This document shows, one piece after another, positions 26,213 through 35,144 of a stretch of 64,000 nucleotides of DNA. The translations under genes and the position numbers were made by a program. The stretch's first letter is position 1. Every line of letters begins with the position of its first letter. The DNA comes from Nitrosarchaeum sp. (GTDB lineage Archaea > Thermoproteota > Nitrososphaeria > Nitrososphaerales > Nitrosopumilaceae): NCBI GenBank assembly GCA_965223865.1, contig OZ245020.1, positions 896,001-960,000 of the forward strand, given 5' to 3'. Below the pieces are notes generated by a model. That model was not told the DNA's origin and made no database searches. It saw only the letters and a list, made by a program, of their open reading frames with translations.

Positions 26213-26731
26213 ATGATGTCTAATCTTATCGGAGTAAGACTAAACAAAGAAGATCACGATGAATATCTAAAGATAGTAAAGGAAAATGGAACAAATCCTT
26301 CTGCAATGACTGCCAAAATTGTACATGATTGGTTACGTTTTCAGCGAACTAAACAATATCGAGGTGATATCACTCTTTCAGGTGAGATTCTTAAAAAAAG
26401 ACACGATGCGATAAAGAAAAATGAAATTGGCAAAATCGTGGATCACAATGCTAAGGTTATCATATCTGAAATGGAGTTTCAGGTGGATGACCTTGACTTT
26501 ACAGAATTGAGCAGAAGGATATTGGAATGGAATAGGGAAAATGGAATTGCAATGATTATGCGAGACAGAAAAGACAATACTGTATTCATGCAAAAACATT
26601 CTCTTGGTGCAATTTGGTCTGAGATCCAATGCAGGATGTATTGCAAAATGTTTGAAATCATTGGCGAGACTATCCGATCTTTCAAGTATGATTCCAGCTC
26701 ATTTAGTTTTGAAGTAATTAGATATAACTAG
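26213..26731 (+). CDS. Putative transcription regulator: N-terminal ribbon-helix-helix-like region plus C-terminal ligand-binding-like domain
   Basis: LIGVRL-helix-NPSAMTAKIVHDWL pattern; C-terminal KHSLGAIWS motif resembling a thaumarchaeal paralog family. Confidence 0.6.
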   Translation: MMSNLIGVRLNKEDHDEYLKIVKENGTNPSAMTAKIVHDWLRFQRTKQYRGDITLSGEILKKRHDAIKKNEIGKIVDHNAKVIISEMEFQVDDLDFTELSRRILEWNRENGIAMIMRDRKDNTVFMQKHSLGAIWSEIQCRMYCKMFEIIGETIRSFKYDSSSFSFEVIRYN

Positions 26732-27009
26732 ATAGAAAAAATTTAAAACAAAATTACTTGTGAAAAAATCAAAAATAATTTTCCATCGTGATTATGGCTA
26801 ATTACATTCAAATATTTTAATACCCTGAATATCTAGTTTTTCTAAATTTTTTAATCTTAATGTTTACTTGATTTTAATCTTCCTTTATATCTAATCTCAA
26901 AACCTATGTTAATTAGAATCTGACTATGTTGATTTGTAACTCATATCAAACCTTTCCATCATTTAGTATGTCATTTGTCACAAACTTATTCTGACTAGAT
27001 TATTTTATA

Positions 27010-27090
27010 TCAATATCTATCTTCATTCAATTCGTCTTCATCGTTTTCTCTTCTAGATGGCCGTATGGGAATGTAAATGATTGACAACAA
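27010..27090 (-). CDS. Putative 26-aa microprotein
   Basis: TTG-initiated MLSIIYIPIRPSRRENDEDELNEDRY; a TAAATA box begins 25 nt upstream. Confidence 0.3.
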   Translation of the reverse strand: MLSIIYIPIRPSRRENDEDELNEDRY

Positions 27091-27223
27091 GATCTACTTT
27101 CCAGTTTAGTATTTAGATCTGACTGATAAATCATTAGTGACTGTTTTAAGCAAACCTCAGAATTTTCATATGTGCTGCCAATAGAACTCATGCCTGTTTA
27201 TCTATTGACTGACATTTGCGTCC

Positions 27224-27252
27224 AAAAGATGGGCGATTAGCCCATCTTTTTT
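27224..27252 (+). terminator. Perfect 11-bp stem-loop followed by a T tract
   Basis: AAAAGATGGGC-gatta-GCCCATCTTTT-TT; no annotated gene immediately upstream. Confidence 0.6.
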
Positions 27253-27363
27253 AAAATAACACTACTTTTAAAATTTCTTCATATACTCTTACTTAATTGA
27301 GGAAGCATTTGACTATCTTAACCAATTTCAGTTAATGTAGAGTCTAAATTTGATTCAAAATTA

Positions 27364-27422
27364 GAAAAAAATTGGAACTTAAGATCAATAACGACAAATT
27401 ATTTGATGACAGTTCCAATTAC
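27364..27422 (-). ncRNA. Candidate small hairpin RNA
   Basis: Inverted repeat AATTGGAACT (27370-27379) / AGTTCCAATT (27411-27420) with a partial inner stem. On the minus strand it starts about 25 nt after a TAAATA box and ends in a U7 run. Confidence 0.3.
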
Positions 27423-27625
27423 CTTGGATGTGATCATTTAGTATTTAGATGGTGCTCATGATTTCTATGAACGAATCATTCATGAATTTTTTTAAACAAA
27501 ATTTTCCATTTTTATCTATGGAAAATCGCAATAACCAGAATCAATCATGGGAAGAAGTTAGAGGATTATCTTGGATATTTTTTGAAGAATAATTCTATAA
27601 TTTGTACATCCTACTTTGATTTTAA

Positions 27626-28108
27626 TTATTTTATTGGAAAACAAATAACAAAATCTAGTTTGTTTACATAATATCTTGTGATTGGTTTTTTAAAATTAGG
27701 TGTAATGAAAGTAATTCCTTTGTAACTTTGAAATTTTTTCAAAAGATAATTAATTTCAATGTTTGCATATCTGTCGTGAGAATTGATTTTACTTCGTTTA
27801 CCAAATAAAGCATCTGCCTCATCAAAAAATACAACACCATACATGCCTTTTGCTCTTTCAAGTATTGTGTTAAGGTTTTTTTCTGTCTCACCAATATATT
27901 TTGATGAAACATTAGGAAGTTCAAATATGTAAAGCAATTTATCTTTGGAGTTATTTTTTTGATTTTGTTTGTTCTTCAAATAGTCTTGATCTTCTCTTAG
28001 ATTTTCTGAATTTAGTAACTTGTCCGACAAATAAACTATTTTTCTTTTTGACGTGTTCTTAGGGTTTGTCTTGCTTTTCACAGTTTTTCTAGTATACTTT
28101 GAGATCAA
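27626..28108 (-). CDS. Degenerate AAA+ ATPase domain protein (Afp15/Pvc15-like subfamily), Walker A absent
   Basis: SKYIGETEKNL, FFDEADALFGKRS and HDRYANIEINYLL motifs; no GxxGxGKT in the ORF. Confidence 0.75.
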   Translation of the reverse strand: MISKYTRKTVKSKTNPKNTSKRKIVYLSDKLLNSENLREDQDYLKNKQNQKNNSKDKLLYIFELPNVSSKYIGETEKNLNTILERAKGMYGVVFFDEADALFGKRSKINSHDRYANIEINYLLKKFQSYKGITFITPNFKKPITRYYVNKLDFVICFPIK

Positions 28109-28268: not shown

Positions 28269-28757
28269 ATGCAAGTAGTAACTGATGACAGACTTCAACT
28301 GTTTGCCAAAATGGAATCAAAATACGAGGAAAAAGATACTGAATATTTCGTGAAACTTTTAGATCATCCTGATTATGTCGTAAGGACAAGAGCAACTTGT
28401 ATTTTAGTTGATTTTGGAGGAGAGGACAAAGTTCCTTACATTGCCAAAGTTCTAAAAAATGATGAAAATGAACTCGTAAGGCATGAAGCAGCTTTTTCTC
28501 TTGGCCAAATGTGCTATTCTAGTGCAATTGAGCCCTTAGCAGATGCAACACTTCATGATCCTAGTATGTTTGTGAGACACGAAGCTGCAATTGCACTTGG
28601 TGTGGTAGGCTCCAAAGAGGCAAAAGAAACTCTAGAAAAGGCACTGAATGATACCGATAAGCCAGTCGTGGAGTCAGCTATTGTTGCATTGTCTAATATT
28701 CAGTTTATGGAAAAGTTAAGTAAGAACGAAAAGTTTGCAAAGTTAACGGGTGGATAA
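28269..28757 (+). CDS. HEAT-repeat protein resembling one half of deoxyhypusine hydroxylase
   Basis: LVRHEAAFSLGQM and FVRHEAAIALG repeats. Confidence 0.85.
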   Translation: MQVVTDDRLQLFAKMESKYEEKDTEYFVKLLDHPDYVVRTRATCILVDFGGEDKVPYIAKVLKNDENELVRHEAAFSLGQMCYSSAIEPLADATLHDPSMFVRHEAAIALGVVGSKEAKETLEKALNDTDKPVVESAIVALSNIQFMEKLSKNEKFAKLTGG

Positions 28758-29558
28758 ATGAATTTTTCAGTTGGTATTATTGCTGCGGTTGGTATGCTTG
28801 TAGCAATAAGCTTAGCCATGATATCCTCAGATCCTGATTTTGTTATAAAACCGACATCTGAGCCAATTACAATACCTGAAGAAAAACCAACTATCTGTAC
28901 AATGGAATATGATCCAGTTTGTGGAGTTGATGGTGTGACTTATGGAAACCAGTGTATGCTTGATGCTGCTGAAATTAAACTAGATTATCAAGGAGAATGT
29001 GTGATGGCTCAACCAGAACCAGAACCAACTCCAGAACCAGAACCAACTCCAGAACCAGAACCAACTCCAGAACCAGAACCAACTCCAGAACCAGAACCAA
29101 CTCCAGAACCAGAACCAACTCCAGAACCAGAACCAACTCCAGAACCAGAACCAACTCCAGAACCAGAACCAACTCCAGAACCAGAACCAACTCCAGAACC
29201 AGAACCAACTCCAGAACCAGAAATATCTCCTTCCTCATCCAAATTATCGGCATCGCCGATAGACTATACAGTTGACATTGCAATAGGTTCCGGAGTTCCT
29301 GGATGTGAAGAAACCCTTGAATGTTATCTTCCATATTCTCTAAATGTTCAAGTTGGTGATACTGTAATTTGGGACAATATTGATACTGCAGCACATACCG
29401 TAACTTCAGGTAGTCCTACTGAAGGTGCTGATGGGTTCTTTGATTCTAGTCTTTTTATGTCTGGCAATACTTTTGAGGTTACTTTTGATGATTCTGGAAC
29501 TTATCCTTACTTCTGTATGGTTCATCCTTGGATGACTGGAAAAGTAATTGTTGAATAA
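28758..29558 (+). CDS. Membrane-anchored Kazal domain plus plastocyanin-like blue copper protein
   Basis: Kazal [20 protein letters not shown]...GEC; PEPEPT linker; type-1 Cu ligands HTVTSG...YFCMVHPWM. Confidence 0.92.
29013..29222 (+). repeat. Perfect 18-bp tandem repeat, 11 full copies plus a partial (PEPEPT)
   Basis: ccagaaccagaaccaact repeated with no substitutions. Confidence 0.98.
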
Positions 29559-29560
29559 TT

Positions 29561-31639
29561 CTAAAGTGCTGTAACTTTACTGCCATTTTCATTTGCTTCA
29601 AATTTGTAAATTCTTTCTACATTGGAGTCTTCGAAAATTTCAGCATCATGGGTAATTATAATAAATTGCATTGGAGTTACAGAATTTGTTATGTCCGATA
29701 ATTGTGACAATACTCCAACCAATGATTTTTTTCGTTCTACATCAAGATGGATTGTAGGCTCGTCCATAATCATCAAATTGAGATTAGATGCTCCAAGAAG
29801 ACTAGCCATGCCTAATCTTAATGCTAATGCCACACTTACTTGTTCTCCTCCACTAAGTGATTCTAAATCTAACATTTCGTTTTTAGAAAAACAGGCAATT
29901 GAAATTTCTCTTGTTTTCTCTGATAATTGTATTCGGTGAATTTTTGTATTAAGTAGTATAAGATATTCTGACGCTTTTGTAGATATTGTATTTAATGCCC
30001 ACGAACGAAGACTTGTTGCAACTGGCCCATCTCTACTAAAAATATTAGTTTGAATACTGTCTAATCTATTAACATATTCTTTGACAAATTTTACTTCTTT
30101 AATGGCCTCCTGCGTTGATTTAATTTGTTCTTCACCTTGCATAATTTTTTCTGAAATTGCTCCTATCTGTTGATCAATTTGTGATAAAGTGACTTGTTTT
30201 TCATTAATTTCTGTTCTTAGATTTTGAAATTTATTTTCATCAAAATTTTTTGTCTCTGATTCGAGTTTTAAAATATTTTCAAAAATCATTTTTGCATGAG
30301 AGTCTATCTCTGAAATTTCTAATAGATTGTAACTAGCTGACAATGGAATATTTTGAACATTTTGTTTTTTTATTTTGATTTCTTCTTGGATTTTTATAAT
30401 ATCTTCTTTAGTGTTAATAGCATGGGCTCTTAGTGTTGCTTCTGCCTCCTTTGCACTTTGTAATTTCTCAGAGAATTCACTTCTTTTTTTATTGTATATA
30501 GTATACTCTTTTTGGGTATCAAAAATTTGCTGTTGAATTTTTTTTAATTCTTGTTTTAGATGCTCTTCTTGAAATAATGGATTTAGCTTTTCTACTTTAG
30601 AGTCACAAACAGGGCATTTGTTATTCTTTAACTGTAATTTTGTAGCAAGATTTTGTTTTTCTTTTAATGATCCTACTTGACTTGTCATCTCTTGAATTTT
30701 CTTTTGTGTTTCCTGTAATGCTTCCTCTATTTTTTGTATTTTTAATTCCAAGTCATTTCTTAGGCCTGAGTACTCAAAACACCCTTCACAATCGCTAATT
30801 TTACGTTCTTTTTCGTTAATTTCATGCTGAATTTCATGAATTGCTCTTTTTGCATATTCTTGTAGCTCTTTCTTTCTCTGTTCTAGTTGACTGATTTTTT
30901 CAATTTTTGGAGTATCTTTCTCTAATCTCTCCCTTAATTTTGATAATATATTTTGAAGTTGATTTTGTTTTGAAATTAAGTTTTCTTTTTGTGGTTTTGC
31001 ATCTTCTATTTCTTTTTGATATTTTTCTAAATCTCTTTGTAAAATATCAATATGTGTATCATCATAACCAATACTTTCTCTGATCTTTTCACGAAAATCT
31101 TTGTATGCTACTTTCATTGCTTCAGATGCAATGTCAAGCTTGTCTATTCCAATTATTGCATTTAGTAGTTCTTTGAATTCTTTTGGTTTTGCTTTGATGA
31201 TTGAATTTAATTCTCCTTGCTGAACAATTGATGCTATTTTCAGTTTTTCAAAATCCAAACCTATTGTTTTTTCTATTTCACGAGTCATGGACTCTCCGAA
31301 CTGTTTTCTTTCTCCTACAGCAATTTCAACAATCTCTCCGTTGATTATCTCAGAAAATTTAGCTGCCAAACTTCCTTTACTGTCAATTTTTCTTGTACTC
31401 TGATATTGTCTGCCATTTACCGAAAACTCTACTTTGGCAAATCCTTGATTAGAGCCACGTTTGATAAGTCCTTTATTTGATTTTCTGGTGTGTTGTCCAA
31501 ATAAAGCAAAAGTTATTGCATCAATGATGCTAGATTTTCCTGCACCATTGTTTCCCACAAATACTGTTACTCCATTATCAAAATCTAATTTGGTTTCAGA
31601 ATGTGACAAAAAATCTCCTAATTCGATTGATGTAATCAA
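29561..31639 (-). CDS. rad50: DNA double-strand break repair ATPase Rad50
   Basis: GNNGAGKSS, coiled coil, zinc hook CPVC, LSGGE, MDEPT. Confidence 0.95.
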   Translation of the reverse strand: MITSIELGDFLSHSETKLDFDNGVTVFVGNNGAGKSSIIDAITFALFGQHTRKSNKGLIKRGSNQGFAKVEFSVNGRQYQSTRKIDSKGSLAAKFSEIINGEIVEIAVGERKQFGESMTREIEKTIGLDFEKLKIASIVQQGELNSIIKAKPKEFKELLNAIIGIDKLDIASEAMKVAYKDFREKIRESIGYDDTHIDILQRDLEKYQKEIEDAKPQKENLISKQNQLQNILSKLRERLEKDTPKIEKISQLEQRKKELQEYAKRAIHEIQHEINEKERKISDCEGCFEYSGLRNDLELKIQKIEEALQETQKKIQEMTSQVGSLKEKQNLATKLQLKNNKCPVCDSKVEKLNPLFQEEHLKQELKKIQQQIFDTQKEYTIYNKKRSEFSEKLQSAKEAEATLRAHAINTKEDIIKIQEEIKIKKQNVQNIPLSASYNLLEISEIDSHAKMIFENILKLESETKNFDENKFQNLRTEINEKQVTLSQIDQQIGAISEKIMQGEEQIKSTQEAIKEVKFVKEYVNRLDSIQTNIFSRDGPVATSLRSWALNTISTKASEYLILLNTKIHRIQLSEKTREISIACFSKNEMLDLESLSGGEQVSVALALRLGMASLLGASNLNLMIMDEPTIHLDVERKKSLVGVLSQLSDITNSVTPMQFIIITHDAEIFEDSNVERIYKFEANENGSKVTAL

Positions 31640-32778
31640 TTTTCTTTCTCCTTTTTGAATCTCTGAAAATTTTCTACAATGATTTGTACTGCATCCTTTG
31701 TTTGACCTGTTGATAAAAGTGGGAGTAATTCTTTTATGGCAAAATTTGCTGCTTGTTGTGATCCGAGTATTTCTGTTGATAATCTAAACACCTCATCATC
31801 AATCAGATTAGGCCTATCTAGAAAGACTGAAGACTCTGATGCCTTTTTTGAGGATATTCTCCAAAAACATCTCAGAGTAAGTGCCTGCAGGCGTGAAATT
31901 TGTGCCTGAATTTGGTCTATTTCGATTTTTTCACCTTGGATTTTTAACTCAACTATTGGCTTTCTTTGAATTCCTGAAATTTTCTCAGAAATCTCATCAA
32001 TTGATTTTGTTATTTCATCATATTCTGTGTTAAATGAAAATTGAGGCCTTGTATCCAACTTAATCCACTTGGTTCTAGCATCTTGAGATGAGATGTCTAC
32101 TTGGAAAAAACCTTTCTTTGCTTCTTTGATACCCTCACTGGTTGTAAGCTCTATGGATCCTGGATATGCAATTGGTCCATTTAGATGATTAAATTGTTTG
32201 ATGTCTTTGTCATGTAAATGTCCCATGGCATAATATGTAAAATTCTTTGGAAGATCAGTTGATTGTAATTCTCCTGCAAACTTGTTAAATTCTGTAATCC
32301 CTTGATGCATTACTAAGATTTTATGTCCTGTATGATTTTTTACAGCATTATCTATCTCTTTGAACTTGTCTTCATATTGAGTAATCTCTGCTTTTCTTAT
32401 CTTGTCAAATCCAGCTAAGAGAATTCCTTTGTATTCAATAGGTTTTCCTTGACCAATATATTTTGAAAATTCTAAATTGTGATAAACATAGGGAATGGGT
32501 GTAGTACGTATTCTGCTAATATCATGTTCTCCTAAAATGAAAAAAGAATCCACGTTGTTTTGTTTTAGTCTTTTTAGAGCATTTGCCATTTGAACAATTG
32601 CAGTTCCATTTGGGTTTGGGACATGAAAAATATCCCCAGCAAATATTACAAAATCTACATGATCCTTAATTGATGTGTCAATTGCTTGATTAAAAACATG
32701 ATAAACATCTTGCTCTCGCTCTTCAGAGCCATACTGAACTAATCCTAAATGGGTATCTGAGATATGTGAAAATAACAT
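31636..32778 (-). CDS. mre11: DNA repair nuclease Mre11
   Basis: SDTHLG, AGDIFH, GEHD, GHLH and YPGS phosphoesterase motifs. Confidence 0.95.
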   Translation of the reverse strand: MLFSHISDTHLGLVQYGSEEREQDVYHVFNQAIDTSIKDHVDFVIFAGDIFHVPNPNGTAIVQMANALKRLKQNNVDSFFILGEHDISRIRTTPIPYVYHNLEFSKYIGQGKPIEYKGILLAGFDKIRKAEITQYEDKFKEIDNAVKNHTGHKILVMHQGITEFNKFAGELQSTDLPKNFTYYAMGHLHDKDIKQFNHLNGPIAYPGSIELTTSEGIKEAKKGFFQVDISSQDARTKWIKLDTRPQFSFNTEYDEITKSIDEISEKISGIQRKPIVELKIQGEKIEIDQIQAQISRLQALTLRCFWRISSKKASESSVFLDRPNLIDDEVFRLSTEILGSQQAANFAIKELLPLLSTGQTKDAVQIIVENFQRFKKEKEN

Positions 32779-34311
32779 TTAATCTAACAACAAATCTTTC
32801 CGAACTAATCCCTGTGTAGATTCTACTGCAACTTCTGCCATTTTATTTGCATTTGCCCATGCACTTACAGCACTCTGATCTGCTCCCATTGTCTTTTCTT
32901 TGACTTCATCAACATGAACTAGTGATGGCAAATTGGTCCATTGTCCTACTAAAACTGCATCACCTACATTCAGAGATGTTAACTGTGAGATTAACTCACG
33001 ACTGGTAGATTCGGTGGCCGAAGCTATTTGTCTTTGATCATCCTCTTGAATAATTTTCATAATTGCAAAAGAGCCCATTTGACTCAAAACATTAAGATCT
33101 ACGCTTCTTGGTCTCTGAGATACGATGCCGAGACCCAACCCAAACTTTCTTCCTTCTCTTGCAATTTTTGCTGCCCAATACTTTGCACTGGTATCGTGAT
33201 CTTTTGGAATAAACACATGTGCCTCTTCTATAATTACAAAAATTGGAGAATTGAATCTGTATTTTCTCTCTCTCTTTGTCCTTCCATGTCTGGCAATACT
33301 TGCATCCTTTCTGTCTTTTAGAAGTTGTTGCAAATAAAATGCTACTGCAACATTTGCTTGTTTTTCTGATAATTCTGAAATGTTTAGAATATTTGTTCTA
33401 CCCTCCTTGATAAAACTGATAGGATCACCCATATCAGGATCCAAAATATCTTCAAACCTTCTTTGTGCTTCTTCAATAATGTCTTGAACTCTGTACGCCG
33501 ATGTCCTGATCTCTTTTAATTTTTTGTCCTCTGAATTTACAATAAAATCTACTTCATTTTCTAACTTTTTCCAAAATTCTTTTGATTCTTTGACATGTCT
33601 TGTAAAGGACATTCGTAATACGCGCTGTTGAACATTTGCGCCGTCTCTAATCTCTAAAACCTCTGATAATTGATCTGCATCCAAAAGTCTTGGATTAATT
33701 TTTGCATCAATAACATTGATTCGTGGAATGTTTAACGTTGTATAGTCATTGTGATAATCAAAAATTATTACTGTTCCTTTTAGATTTCCAATCTGCTTTG
33801 TGACAAGAGATACTAGATTGCTTTTTCCCATCCCTGTCATAGCTAAAATTCCCAAATGTCTCGAAACTATTTTGTCAAGATTTACTTTCGCATCTATAGT
33901 TTTATTTCTTAATAACTTTCCAATTTTTACCCACCCTTCTTGTGATGAACTAAATATTTCTTCAAGTTCTTCTTTTGTAGGCTGTGTGATTTCTGTGCCT
34001 GGAATCGGAGGTATTGCGGGAATTATCGATTGTCCTTTTTGCAATTTTTCCAAAAATCCTAAAATTCCAATATTTGCAGTAAATGTTTTATCTCTTCTGT
34101 TAATTTCGGCAATTTCTGTTGATTCTTCTGCTTCATCAAAATTTTTTACATCTGCAAAGGCTGCACTTGATACTTTGGATTTTTCAACCAATCCGAGAAT
34201 TTTTCCTTCATCAGTATCAATAATGATGTATTCGCCAACTGATAATGGTCTTGATGTTAATGCAGTGACAAATGTGGGCTTTGATTCTCCAATTACATAA
34301 CCTAAACTCAT
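32779..34311 (-). CDS. herA: HerA helicase/translocase
   Basis: HAS-barrel N-terminus; AMTGMGKS, IEEAH, REGRKFG and SQRP motifs. Confidence 0.95.
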   Translation of the reverse strand: MSLGYVIGESKPTFVTALTSRPLSVGEYIIIDTDEGKILGLVEKSKVSSAAFADVKNFDEAEESTEIAEINRRDKTFTANIGILGFLEKLQKGQSIIPAIPPIPGTEITQPTKEELEEIFSSSQEGWVKIGKLLRNKTIDAKVNLDKIVSRHLGILAMTGMGKSNLVSLVTKQIGNLKGTVIIFDYHNDYTTLNIPRINVIDAKINPRLLDADQLSEVLEIRDGANVQQRVLRMSFTRHVKESKEFWKKLENEVDFIVNSEDKKLKEIRTSAYRVQDIIEEAQRRFEDILDPDMGDPISFIKEGRTNILNISELSEKQANVAVAFYLQQLLKDRKDASIARHGRTKRERKYRFNSPIFVIIEEAHVFIPKDHDTSAKYWAAKIAREGRKFGLGLGIVSQRPRSVDLNVLSQMGSFAIMKIIQEDDQRQIASATESTSRELISQLTSLNVGDAVLVGQWTNLPSLVHVDEVKEKTMGADQSAVSAWANANKMAEVAVESTQGLVRKDLLLD

Positions 34312-35144
34312 CCTAATACCTCTCTTGAACCAATCTCATTACTTAAGCCTAACAAACTAACCATTTTTGCAAGCTCTTTGTCTGATATTTTACAGTTATT
34401 ATGTGCAAGCTTGAGTGCATAAGGATATCCTCCTACACTACTTTTGTAAAGTTTGTTTAATGTTGTTTTGATCTCTTCTTCTGAACGATCTTGTCCTAAA
34501 AATTCTAATTTGATAATTGGAGTTGAATCACTTAATCTTACAAATGTTGATGCGATAACTTTGTCTTGTCCGTATTTTTTTTCTATAAATAATTTTGAAA
34601 ACCCAGAACCTTTTGTCACATGATTGTAATAGAAAATATCTCCTGCTAGTGAACCTAGACTCTCAAATTGTTTTTTGGTGTTTGATGTTTTGGCAATAAA
34701 AATCACGTTGTCTCTTTTTTTCATAGTTCTGACCACTGCTGCATCCAGTGCTGATTGTCTTGTCATAAATTGAGAATGTAGAGAACCATCCATTAATACC
34801 AAATCTGCCTGATCTATGGTTTTCTCACATGCCTCTATCTCCATTCTGCTTGCAATTCTTGAAAGATCTATATCTGAGCCAAGACCTGAATCGTGTAAAT
34901 CTACTAACACCTCCCCATCAGCCTTTATCGCAACTGCAGTGGTTGCCCATAACTCAATTCCTTGAAATTTTGTGTTATTAAAACTCGAATCAATCCCTGC
35001 AGTTATCGCCTCTTCTTTTTTAGGCTCAAATTCTATCCAATTTTCTCTAGCTTTTTGCAAAATTTGCTCAAATTTAGGTCCTTTTAGGATGGAGAGCATC
35101 TTGTCCCTCTTCAAAATTGCATCTTTATAGACAGTATTGAGCAC
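34308..35144 (-). CDS. nurA: NurA nuclease
   Basis: GIDSS, MDGS and GYPYALKLAH motifs; first gene of the nurA-herA-mre11-rad50 operon. Confidence 0.93.
   Translation of the reverse strand: MLNTVYKDAILKRDKMLSILKGPKFEQILQKARENWIEFEPKKEEAITAGIDSSFNNTKFQGIELWATTAVAIKADGEVLVDLHDSGLGSDIDLSRIASRMEIEACEKTIDQADLVLMDGSLHSQFMTRQSALDAAVVRTMKKRDNVIFIAKTSNTKKQFESLGSLAGDIFYYNHVTKGSGFSKLFIEKKYGQDKVIASTFVRLSDSTPIIKLEFLGQDRSEEEIKTTLNKLYKSSVGGYPYALKLAHNNCKISDKELAKMVSLLGLSNEIGSREVLG

Follow-up and report, generated by a model that had tools for sequence, protein, structure and literature searches.

A half-size relative of deoxyhypusine hydroxylase, predicted to be homodimeric, in ammonia-oxidising archaea

The window analysed here, 64,000 nucleotides of a Nitrosarchaeum sp. 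genome (contig OZ245020.1, positions 896,001 to 960,000), carries on its plus strand, at 28269..28757, an open reading frame (ORF) whose product, judged by its sequence, is truly related to a lobe, four repeats long, of deoxyhypusine hydroxylase (DOHH), with the set of metal ligands intact. The gene is conserved and single-copy in nearly every sampled ammonia-oxidising archaeon, and structure prediction suggests that the protein is probably a homodimeric diiron enzyme. The best reading, to which I give a probability of about 0.5, is a half-size DOHH homologue that hydroxylates deoxyhypusine on the archaeal translation factor 5A (aIF5A); that the protein binds iron and is catalytic, and which substrate it uses, I only infer. 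Hypusine on translation factor 5A is among the most specific protein modifications known. No archaeal DOHH homologue had been found according to the available text of five hypusine papers from 2012 to 2021 (PMC5178350, Prunetti 2016; PMC6105217, Bassani 2018; PMC7432094, a 2020 paper on the structure of deoxyhypusine synthase, DHS; PMC8153317, a 2021 review; PMC3306375, a 2012 Leishmania paper), which agrees with a previous sequence-only reading of this window, whose author knew of no characterised archaeal DOHH. This lack, as far as the accessible parts of those papers go, leaves the archaeal hypusine pathway open, and a homologue makes the question testable in cultivable organisms.

The ORF starts with ATG, includes its stop codon and encodes 162 amino acids (aa). 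In Pfam the protein scores 113.1 bits for HEAT_2 (E 7.4e-33, gathering cut-off 27.7) and 50.9 bits for HEAT_PBS (E 8.5e-14, gathering cut-off 20.9), and it reaches the gathering scores for the superfamily of PF03130 and PF13646. An AlphaFold model of the monomer, made from an alignment of 22 rows (pLDDT 93.3), has four helical hairpins between a helix at the N-terminus and a short one at the C-terminus. The first of two His-Glu (HE) motifs, LVRHEAAFSLGQM, has H72/E73 at nucleotides 28482-28487, followed by the invariant pair G79-Q80 at 28503-28508, and the second, FVRHEAAIALG, has H104/E105 at 28578-28583; the two are flanked by RTRATCILVDFGG and VVESAIVAL. ORF, translation, Pfam and model all agree with the description, in the sequence-only reading, of a four-HEAT protein of 162 aa with these two motifs.

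H72, E73, G79, Q80, H104 and E105 are invariant in all 22 aligned sequences, down to 39% identity, so that the conservation of the motifs in orthologues, proposed earlier as a check, is borne out; each of 19 diverse orthologous loci also preserves both motifs. Among 209 large HEAT proteins, 13 of 2122 repeats (0.6%) have 'HE' at the equivalent position, and 2 of 949 pairs of adjacent repeats (0.2%) have it twice, a control that is conservative, as these background proteins had been retrieved for their resemblance to the 162-aa protein. HE repeats follow one another in a single background protein, P0271 (1029 aa), which has five repeats of the VRHEAA type and may be a multi-site metal-binding HEAT protein.

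In human DOHH the HE motifs are H56-E57/H89-E90 and H207-E208/H240-E241, and the part of Park 2021 (PMC9117371) that was available gives H89-E90 and H240-E241 as diiron anchors and G214 as binding the deoxyhypusine side chain. H104/E105 is equivalent to both anchors, and the invariant G79, at position His+7, is equivalent to G214 relative to H207; E73 and G79 are together the equivalents of residues that bind the deoxyhypusine side chain in the accessible text of the same source. The spacing between the two His residues is 32, vs 33 in eukaryotic DOHH, whose motifs in the retrieved sequences (LKHEVAYVLGQ and VRHEAAEALG) fit those given in the sequence-only reading. A caveat of that reading, the Ile in place of a Glu three residues after the second HE, has lost weight: the C-terminal halves of three eukaryotic DOHHs, P0140, P0141 and P0161, also read VRHEAAIALG.

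The homology to DOHH lobes, as seen in sequence comparisons, extends beyond the HE motifs. BLASTP aligns the protein with the C-terminal half of yeast DOHH (P0137) at 36% identity over 133 residues and all four repeats, in register at both HE motifs, at the G-Q pair, at R-x-R-A in repeat 1 and at S-A-I-V-A-L in repeat 4; VRTRATCIL of repeat 1 is paired with ERYRAMFRL, and repeat 4 with VVRDSAIVALD. The best natural match in the PDB is human DOHH (4d4z, E 3.5e-21, 78.9 bits), followed by 26S proteasome subunit 1 at 35.8 bits, with YibA and MTH187 also behind DOHH; the top sequence matches overall are consensus-designed alphaRep binders, at 179 bits. A profile of the archaeal family does not separate the groups by itself, since the C-terminal halves of DOHH (70-89 bits) overlap the best generic HEAT windows (up to 86.7), and the reverse test was therefore made with a DOHH profile of 14 halves from 7 eukaryotic DOHHs, which represent two groups. 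On this profile the window family, the protein and its orthologues (n = 22), scores 72-88 bits, vs a generic maximum of 54.9, and none of 2322 domains of 213 HEAT proteins reaches 72. Masking of the HE residues leaves the family at 58-75 bits and the generic maximum at 59.3, and 1 of 2451 domains then reaches 58. In the comparison that the sequence-only reading had called for, DOHH halves against HEAT proteins of the PBS-lyase kind, the protein comes out above all generic windows. In a search with the modelled monomer, the fold does not discriminate between DOHH (4d4z_A, TMq 0.72, root-mean-square deviation 4.2 over 140 columns) and alphaRep (TMq ~0.70). A search of representative sequences was dominated by giant HEAT proteins with many repeats, which collect their scores from numerous stretches, and 5 of the 150 entries listed were useful orthologues or variants.

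Databases name these proteins in two ways. Some records of orthologues read 'PBS lyase', and a phycobilin lyase was considered and rejected: CpcE/CpcF and NblB share HEAT_PBS repeats with the protein, but its NCBIfam scores lie far below their cut-offs (NblB 37.3 vs 300, CpcE 25.5 vs 330, CpcF 18.6 vs 220), and archaea are not known to have phycobiliproteins. Eight among the 120 orthologues listed carry the automatic JGI name 'deoxyhypusine monooxygenase', and the DOHH claim is therefore not wholly new. A literature search on archaeal deoxyhypusine monooxygenase found nothing related in the portions of text that were available, and prokaryotic relatives may have been mentioned earlier. A sponge-symbiont-specific HEAT protein, met in the literature on PBS lyase and Nitrosopumilus, is a different protein.

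The split between the generic windows and the window family together with the DOHH halves received an SH-aLRT value of 96 in a tree built from 22 members of the family, 14 halves of DOHH and 35 generic windows. With the four His/Glu columns removed, a careful search returned the same split at UFBoot 94 and SH-aLRT 91, with a bootstrap that was not fully settled. A second tree, from a neutral alignment to which 18 half-size sequences from Marine Group II (MGII) archaea and one bacterial full-length protein had been added, has three clades: DOHH with the MGII type and the bacterial protein (97), the window family (94) and the generic proteins (92).

The homodimer that the sequence-only reading had proposed was returned by structure prediction with an ipSAE of 0.91 in each of three runs, vs 0.00 for the best of three controls, with 136-138 contacts, at least 97% contact agreement between runs and a pLDDT of 94. 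The calibration mark was reached by 20 of the 30 homo-pairs of solved structure and by one of the 23 single chains, a yardstick that is only rough here, as a custom alignment and a ligand were used; the ligand, two Fe atoms, was placed in the model, and small molecules carried no score. The predicted interface is symmetric and includes residues 72-73, 76, 101 and 104, and with them H72, E73 and H104, as well as the N-terminal helix (3-20) and the tail (149-162), and it packs repeat 1 of each chain on repeat 4 of its partner. The helix contacts the tail of the partner; this tail has a low pLDDT in the monomer model, yet its residues 159-162 lie in the predicted dimer interface. Based on these models, the protein very probably works as a homodimer. 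F156, G161 and G162 of the tail are kept in at least 90% of the 22 sequences, and the tail, KFAKLTGG, is absent from eukaryotic DOHH and from the MGII-type sequences compared.

In the other sampled families the tail is present as KF-x-K-x-TGG, and family f6 ends differently: its orthologues L134, L135 and L136 (from genomes G001, G042 and G033) keep both HE motifs and end in ...APRP. If the tail is a dimer clasp, the f6 proteins, being without it, must pair in another way.

A natural tandem-fused, single-chain form exists as P0202 (363 aa, four HE motifs). In a model made without an alignment (pLDDT 74.3) its two units take up the arrangement of human DOHH (TMq 0.63, TMt 0.78), and the other chains among the matches listed have TMq values of at most 0.40. 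Face-to-face packing of lobes around the His residues is found in human DOHH and is predicted for both the window dimer and P0202.

Eukaryotic DOHH (human 4D4Z; yeast Lia1; EC 1.14.99.29) and the window protein have in common the HEAT_PBS-type repeats, the HE motifs on repeats 2 and 3 of a lobe, 32-33 residues apart and with G-Q after the first, the R-x-R-A of repeat 1 and the S-A-I-V-A-L of repeat 4. They differ in that the window protein has 162 instead of about 300 residues, is ~36% identical, falls in a separate clade and forms a single lobe, whereas DOHH has eight repeats in one chain, arranged as a symmetrical dyad of two lobes, in place of which a homodimer is predicted; it has its own N-terminal helix and KFAKLTGG tail where the eukaryotic enzyme has an inter-lobe linker. 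Generic HEAT proteins of the PBS-lyase type (PF03130, PF13646; MTH187, YibA; alphaRep) belong to the same repeat family and share the monomer fold, but have HE in 0.6% of their repeats, score at most 54.9 bits on the DOHH profile and are open solenoids rather than face-to-face dimers (TMq at most 0.40 to P0202).

In eukaryotic DOHH the diiron centre, which forms a peroxo-diiron(III) species, lies between two covalently linked lobes. In the mechanism that I propose for the window protein, two copies would pair face to face, with the N-terminal helix and the C-terminal tail acting as a clasp, as the dimer model suggests, and this clasp would take the place of the covalent linker. Each chain would give H72, H104 and E105 to one iron, so that the dimer would rebuild the diiron centre, and E73 and G79 would line the substrate pocket. 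DHS would put deoxyhypusine on aIF5A, and the enzyme would then use O2 to hydroxylate the side chain to hypusine. The genome to which the window belongs encodes DHS twice, as paralogues, and a single aIF5A, which carries the site KPGKHG. The five sequencing runs listed include none recorded as RNA.

The class was surveyed in 201 genomes, with the unpublished genome G115 counted within the 126 of family f1. The gene is present in 151 of 153 sampled genomes of its own order (f1 125/126, f2 6/6, f3 16/17, f4 1/1, f5 3/3); close orthologues are named from Nitrosopumilus and Nitrosarchaeum records. Outside the order but within the class it was found in f6 (5/8, without the TGG tail), f8 (1/1) and f10 (1/6, a weak match), and in none of 32 sampled genomes of f7, f9 and f11-f14. 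Two DHS paralogues are present in nearly every sampled genome of the order, a single copy in each sampled genome of f7 and f10, and up to three in f9. The phylum survey (401 genomes, E <= 1e-12) found the gene in 75 genomes, and beyond the class only f22 (10/16) and f41 (2/16) carry it; 7 of the 13 named records of the f22/f41 type are metagenome-assembled genomes (MAGs) of 'Candidatus Caldarchaeum'. Haem-copper oxidase subunit I occurs throughout the sampled genomes of the families to which these 75 belong (f1 61/61, f2 1/1, f3 2/2, f22 16/16, f41 16/16), and the gene is found in 0 of the 247 oxidase-negative genomes of this survey. This aerobe-only distribution fits an O2-dependent enzyme and rests on few independent lineages.

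A second half-size type was recovered when prokaryotic genomes were queried with an alignment of eukaryotic DOHH, with patterns that could not match sequences of the window type; this gave 390 relatives among 443 pattern matches. The best 80 of the 390 are L159, L178 and 78 records that are mostly from Poseidoniales/Marine Group II; two HE motifs are present in 79 of their ORFs and four in the remaining one, and 63 are 150-175 aa long after trimming of the starts. These 63 MGII-type proteins score 142-170 bits on the DOHH-half profile, are 42-52% identical to eukaryotic DOHH over the best segment and stand beside the eukaryotic C-terminal halves in the tree. Like the window protein they consist of one lobe of ~150-175 aa, made of four repeats and carrying two HE motifs, and they come from aerobic marine archaea; unlike it they are nearer to eukaryotic DOHH, have the eukaryotic linker motif SVDPAPP, lack the TGG tail and have a gene of the MqnA/MqnD family as neighbour. 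The co-oriented ORF upstream of the gene mostly leaves a gap of -8 to +13 nt (L160-L238). The literature searched contained no description of half-size DOHH-like proteins from MGII.

Two of the best 80 relatives are bacterial. L159:1992-2930, on the 6.9 Mb chromosome of a Putridiphycobacter sp. MAG (Bacteroidota), is a full-length DOHH-like gene for 313 aa with four HE motifs, and the halves of its product fall among the eukaryotic N- and C-terminal halves in the tree. Bacteria carry EF-P rather than IF5A, so that this gene would either be a transfer from a eukaryote or encode a protein with another role. L178:1992-2309, on a 9.8-kb contig of an Acidobacteria MAG, is a DOHH-like fragment with the fungal-looking motifs LLKHELAYVLGQTRNLHA; as the match extends past a single open frame, the bin may be contaminated with eukaryotic DNA or the gene may be interrupted.

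A number of observations weigh against the reading as a deoxyhypusine hydroxylase. On the sequence trees the window family is a clade of its own, not nested within DOHH, and it is plausibly its sister only with a root among generic HEAT proteins; the phylogenetic test suggested in the sequence-only reading sets the family apart from generic proteins but does not place it inside DOHH. By profile score the family is much further from DOHH than the MGII type is. In 4 of the 5 MGII loci sampled the gene lies directly next to a menaquinone gene of the MqnA/MqnD family, so that some members of the wider family may use other substrates. In the genome of the window the two DHS genes lie ~388 kb and ~751 kb, and the aIF5A gene ~870 kb, from the HEAT gene. 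Among 233 context loci, DHS stands beside the HEAT gene only in L157, L158 and G366, which I count as one lineage. The second DHS paralogue was tried as a marker of co-occurrence and dropped, as f9 and f11 mostly have at least two DHS and no HEAT match. Several oxidase-positive families are without the gene (f31 0/16, f23 0/23, f25 0/13). The fused form P0202 is a singleton on one contig, and the solved DOHH structure, remembered by the programs, may in part have shaped the models of the dimer and of the fused form. According to the accessible parts of PMC5178350 and PMC7432094, hypusine occurs in some Crenarchaea, even without oxygen, with no DOHH homologue, and archaeal hydroxylation need therefore not use the HEAT fold. 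The literature search returned no paper on hypusine in Thaumarchaeota, which may carry hypusine or deoxyhypusine only. Of the homodimeric DOHH put forward in the sequence-only reading, the homology to a lobe and the predicted dimer have held, while the separate clade and the mixed gene neighbourhood count against it.

Could the protein be a homodimeric dimetal oxygenase of HEAT fold and DOHH stock that acts on something else, a quinone, a polyamine or another protein? This is the main rival reading, and I consider it rather unlikely. The idea stems from the menaquinone neighbour of the MGII relatives, the separate clade of the window family and the generic fit of the dimetal evidence, as ligand residues, dimer prediction and restriction to aerobes would suit any O2-dependent dimetal enzyme. 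The co-oriented ORF that ends within 400 nt upstream of the gene in 74 of 80 loci of the MGII type also favours it, and so does the neighbourhood of the window gene, where none of the genes is translation-related. Yet the sole informative neighbourhood of the window type is DHS, the single MqnA/MqnD-family gene of the window genome lies ~555 kb from the HEAT gene, and no enzyme other than DOHH is known with both the HEAT fold and a diiron site. The invariance of E73 and G79, in view of their deoxyhypusine-binding equivalents in what was available of PMC9117371, also points to deoxyhypusine as the substrate.

A non-catalytic HEAT_PBS scaffold or adaptor, with HE pairs for protein binding or metal sensing and a likeness to DOHH that is convergent or generic, would explain why alphaRep binders are the top PDB matches, why the monomer fits their fold as well as that of DOHH and why generic windows overlap DOHH C-terminal halves on the archaeal profile. 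I nevertheless hold it to be improbable: the HE pairs are rare in generic repeats and invariant in the orthologues, the separation on the DOHH profile persists with HE masked, and a specific two-fold dimer is predicted with the HE residues at its centre. By analogy with HEAT lyases, which load cofactors, one might also think of a protein that helps to assemble, or otherwise assists, the membrane-tethered blue-copper protein whose gene lies directly downstream, as the stop codon of the HEAT gene abuts the ATG of this cupredoxin gene and the latter lies at most 1.5 kb downstream in 62 of 63 close Nitrosopumilaceae loci with enough downstream sequence. But the cupredoxin gene is found in 0 of 19 diverse and 0 of 13 Caldarchaeum-type loci, and to judge by the sequences a signal peptide is lacking in the HEAT protein, while the cupredoxin protein is anchored in the membrane; because the pairing is confined to close relatives, I reject this explanation, whose chances are very slim.

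I also suggest, tentatively and at somewhat less than even odds, that ammonia oxidisers and the Caldarchaeum lineage make true hypusine by a homodimeric single-lobe DOHH and in this preserve the state before the internal duplication that gave rise to the eukaryotic enzyme with its eight repeats. Aerobic archaea would in that case already have had an O2-dependent hypusine hydroxylase, and to say that archaea are without DOHH would be incorrect for lineages that rank among the most abundant archaea on the planet. The protein would then be the simplest version of the only HEAT-fold diiron oxygenase known, a symmetric homodimer of use for studying both the mechanism and the origin by duplication of the eukaryotic enzyme. 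If the substrate is another one, a HEAT-fold oxygenase would be used beyond hypusine, which would still be of interest. The features discussed are collected in Table 1.

Table 1. Coordinates of the HEAT gene, its parts and associated genes (window numbering unless a contig is named)
Feature	Position	Strand	Basis or remark
Half-size DOHH-like HEAT gene	28269..28757	+	ORF, Pfam, orthologues in sampled genomes of the same order
N-terminal helix, residues 6-20	28284..28328	+	Model; M15 and E16 invariant
HEAT repeat 1, residues 24-49, VRTRATCIL	28338..28415	+	BLASTP alignment, R39 invariant, model helices
HEAT repeat 2, residues 52-81, first HE motif H72/E73	28422..28511	+	Sequence, alignment
HEAT repeat 3, residues 84-113, second HE motif H104/E105	28518..28607	+	Sequence, alignment
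HEAT repeat 4, residues 116-149, VVESAIVALSN	28614..28715	+	S136, A137 and N143 invariant; BLASTP alignment
C-terminal tail KFAKLTGG, residues 155-162, Gly-Gly end	28731..28754	+	Conserved in alignment
Kazal-linker-cupredoxin gene	28758-29558	+	ATG at 28758 abuts HEAT stop codon 28755-28757
DHS paralogues (L001, L002), 316 and 363 aa	G000 C1:1674980-1675834 and C1:1312683-1313576		

In L157 the gene order is DHS (+), DHS (-), HEAT gene (+), followed by a SLOG-family gene and a ferritin-like gene; the second DHS and the HEAT gene diverge, with 75 bp between them. DHS lies 5 kb from the HEAT gene in G222 and 19 kb in G003, and on another contig in G431 and G042. The two DHS genes are adjacent to each other in L157 and in G431.

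Upstream of the window gene lie an AAA fragment and an ORF without a name, and downstream of it the Kazal-cupredoxin gene. The product of the latter has an N-terminal membrane anchor, a Kazal-type domain, more than 10 PEPEPT repeats (an 18-nt repeat in the DNA) and a plastocyanin-like cupredoxin domain. Between the AhpC-like gene and the HEAT gene, the stretch 26213-28108 holds a 172-aa ORF (+) and a 160-aa AAA-ATPase fragment (-); in 80 related Nitrosopumilaceae loci the ORF is present once, the AAA fragment in none and the AhpC-like gene in 77, and the stretch has the look of an insertion specific to the strain. Rad50 is the immediate neighbour of the HEAT gene in L142 and L145. In the window a complete operon for DNA-end resection, Rad50-Mre11-HerA-NurA, occupies 29561-35144 on the minus strand and is convergent to the pair of HEAT and cupredoxin genes.

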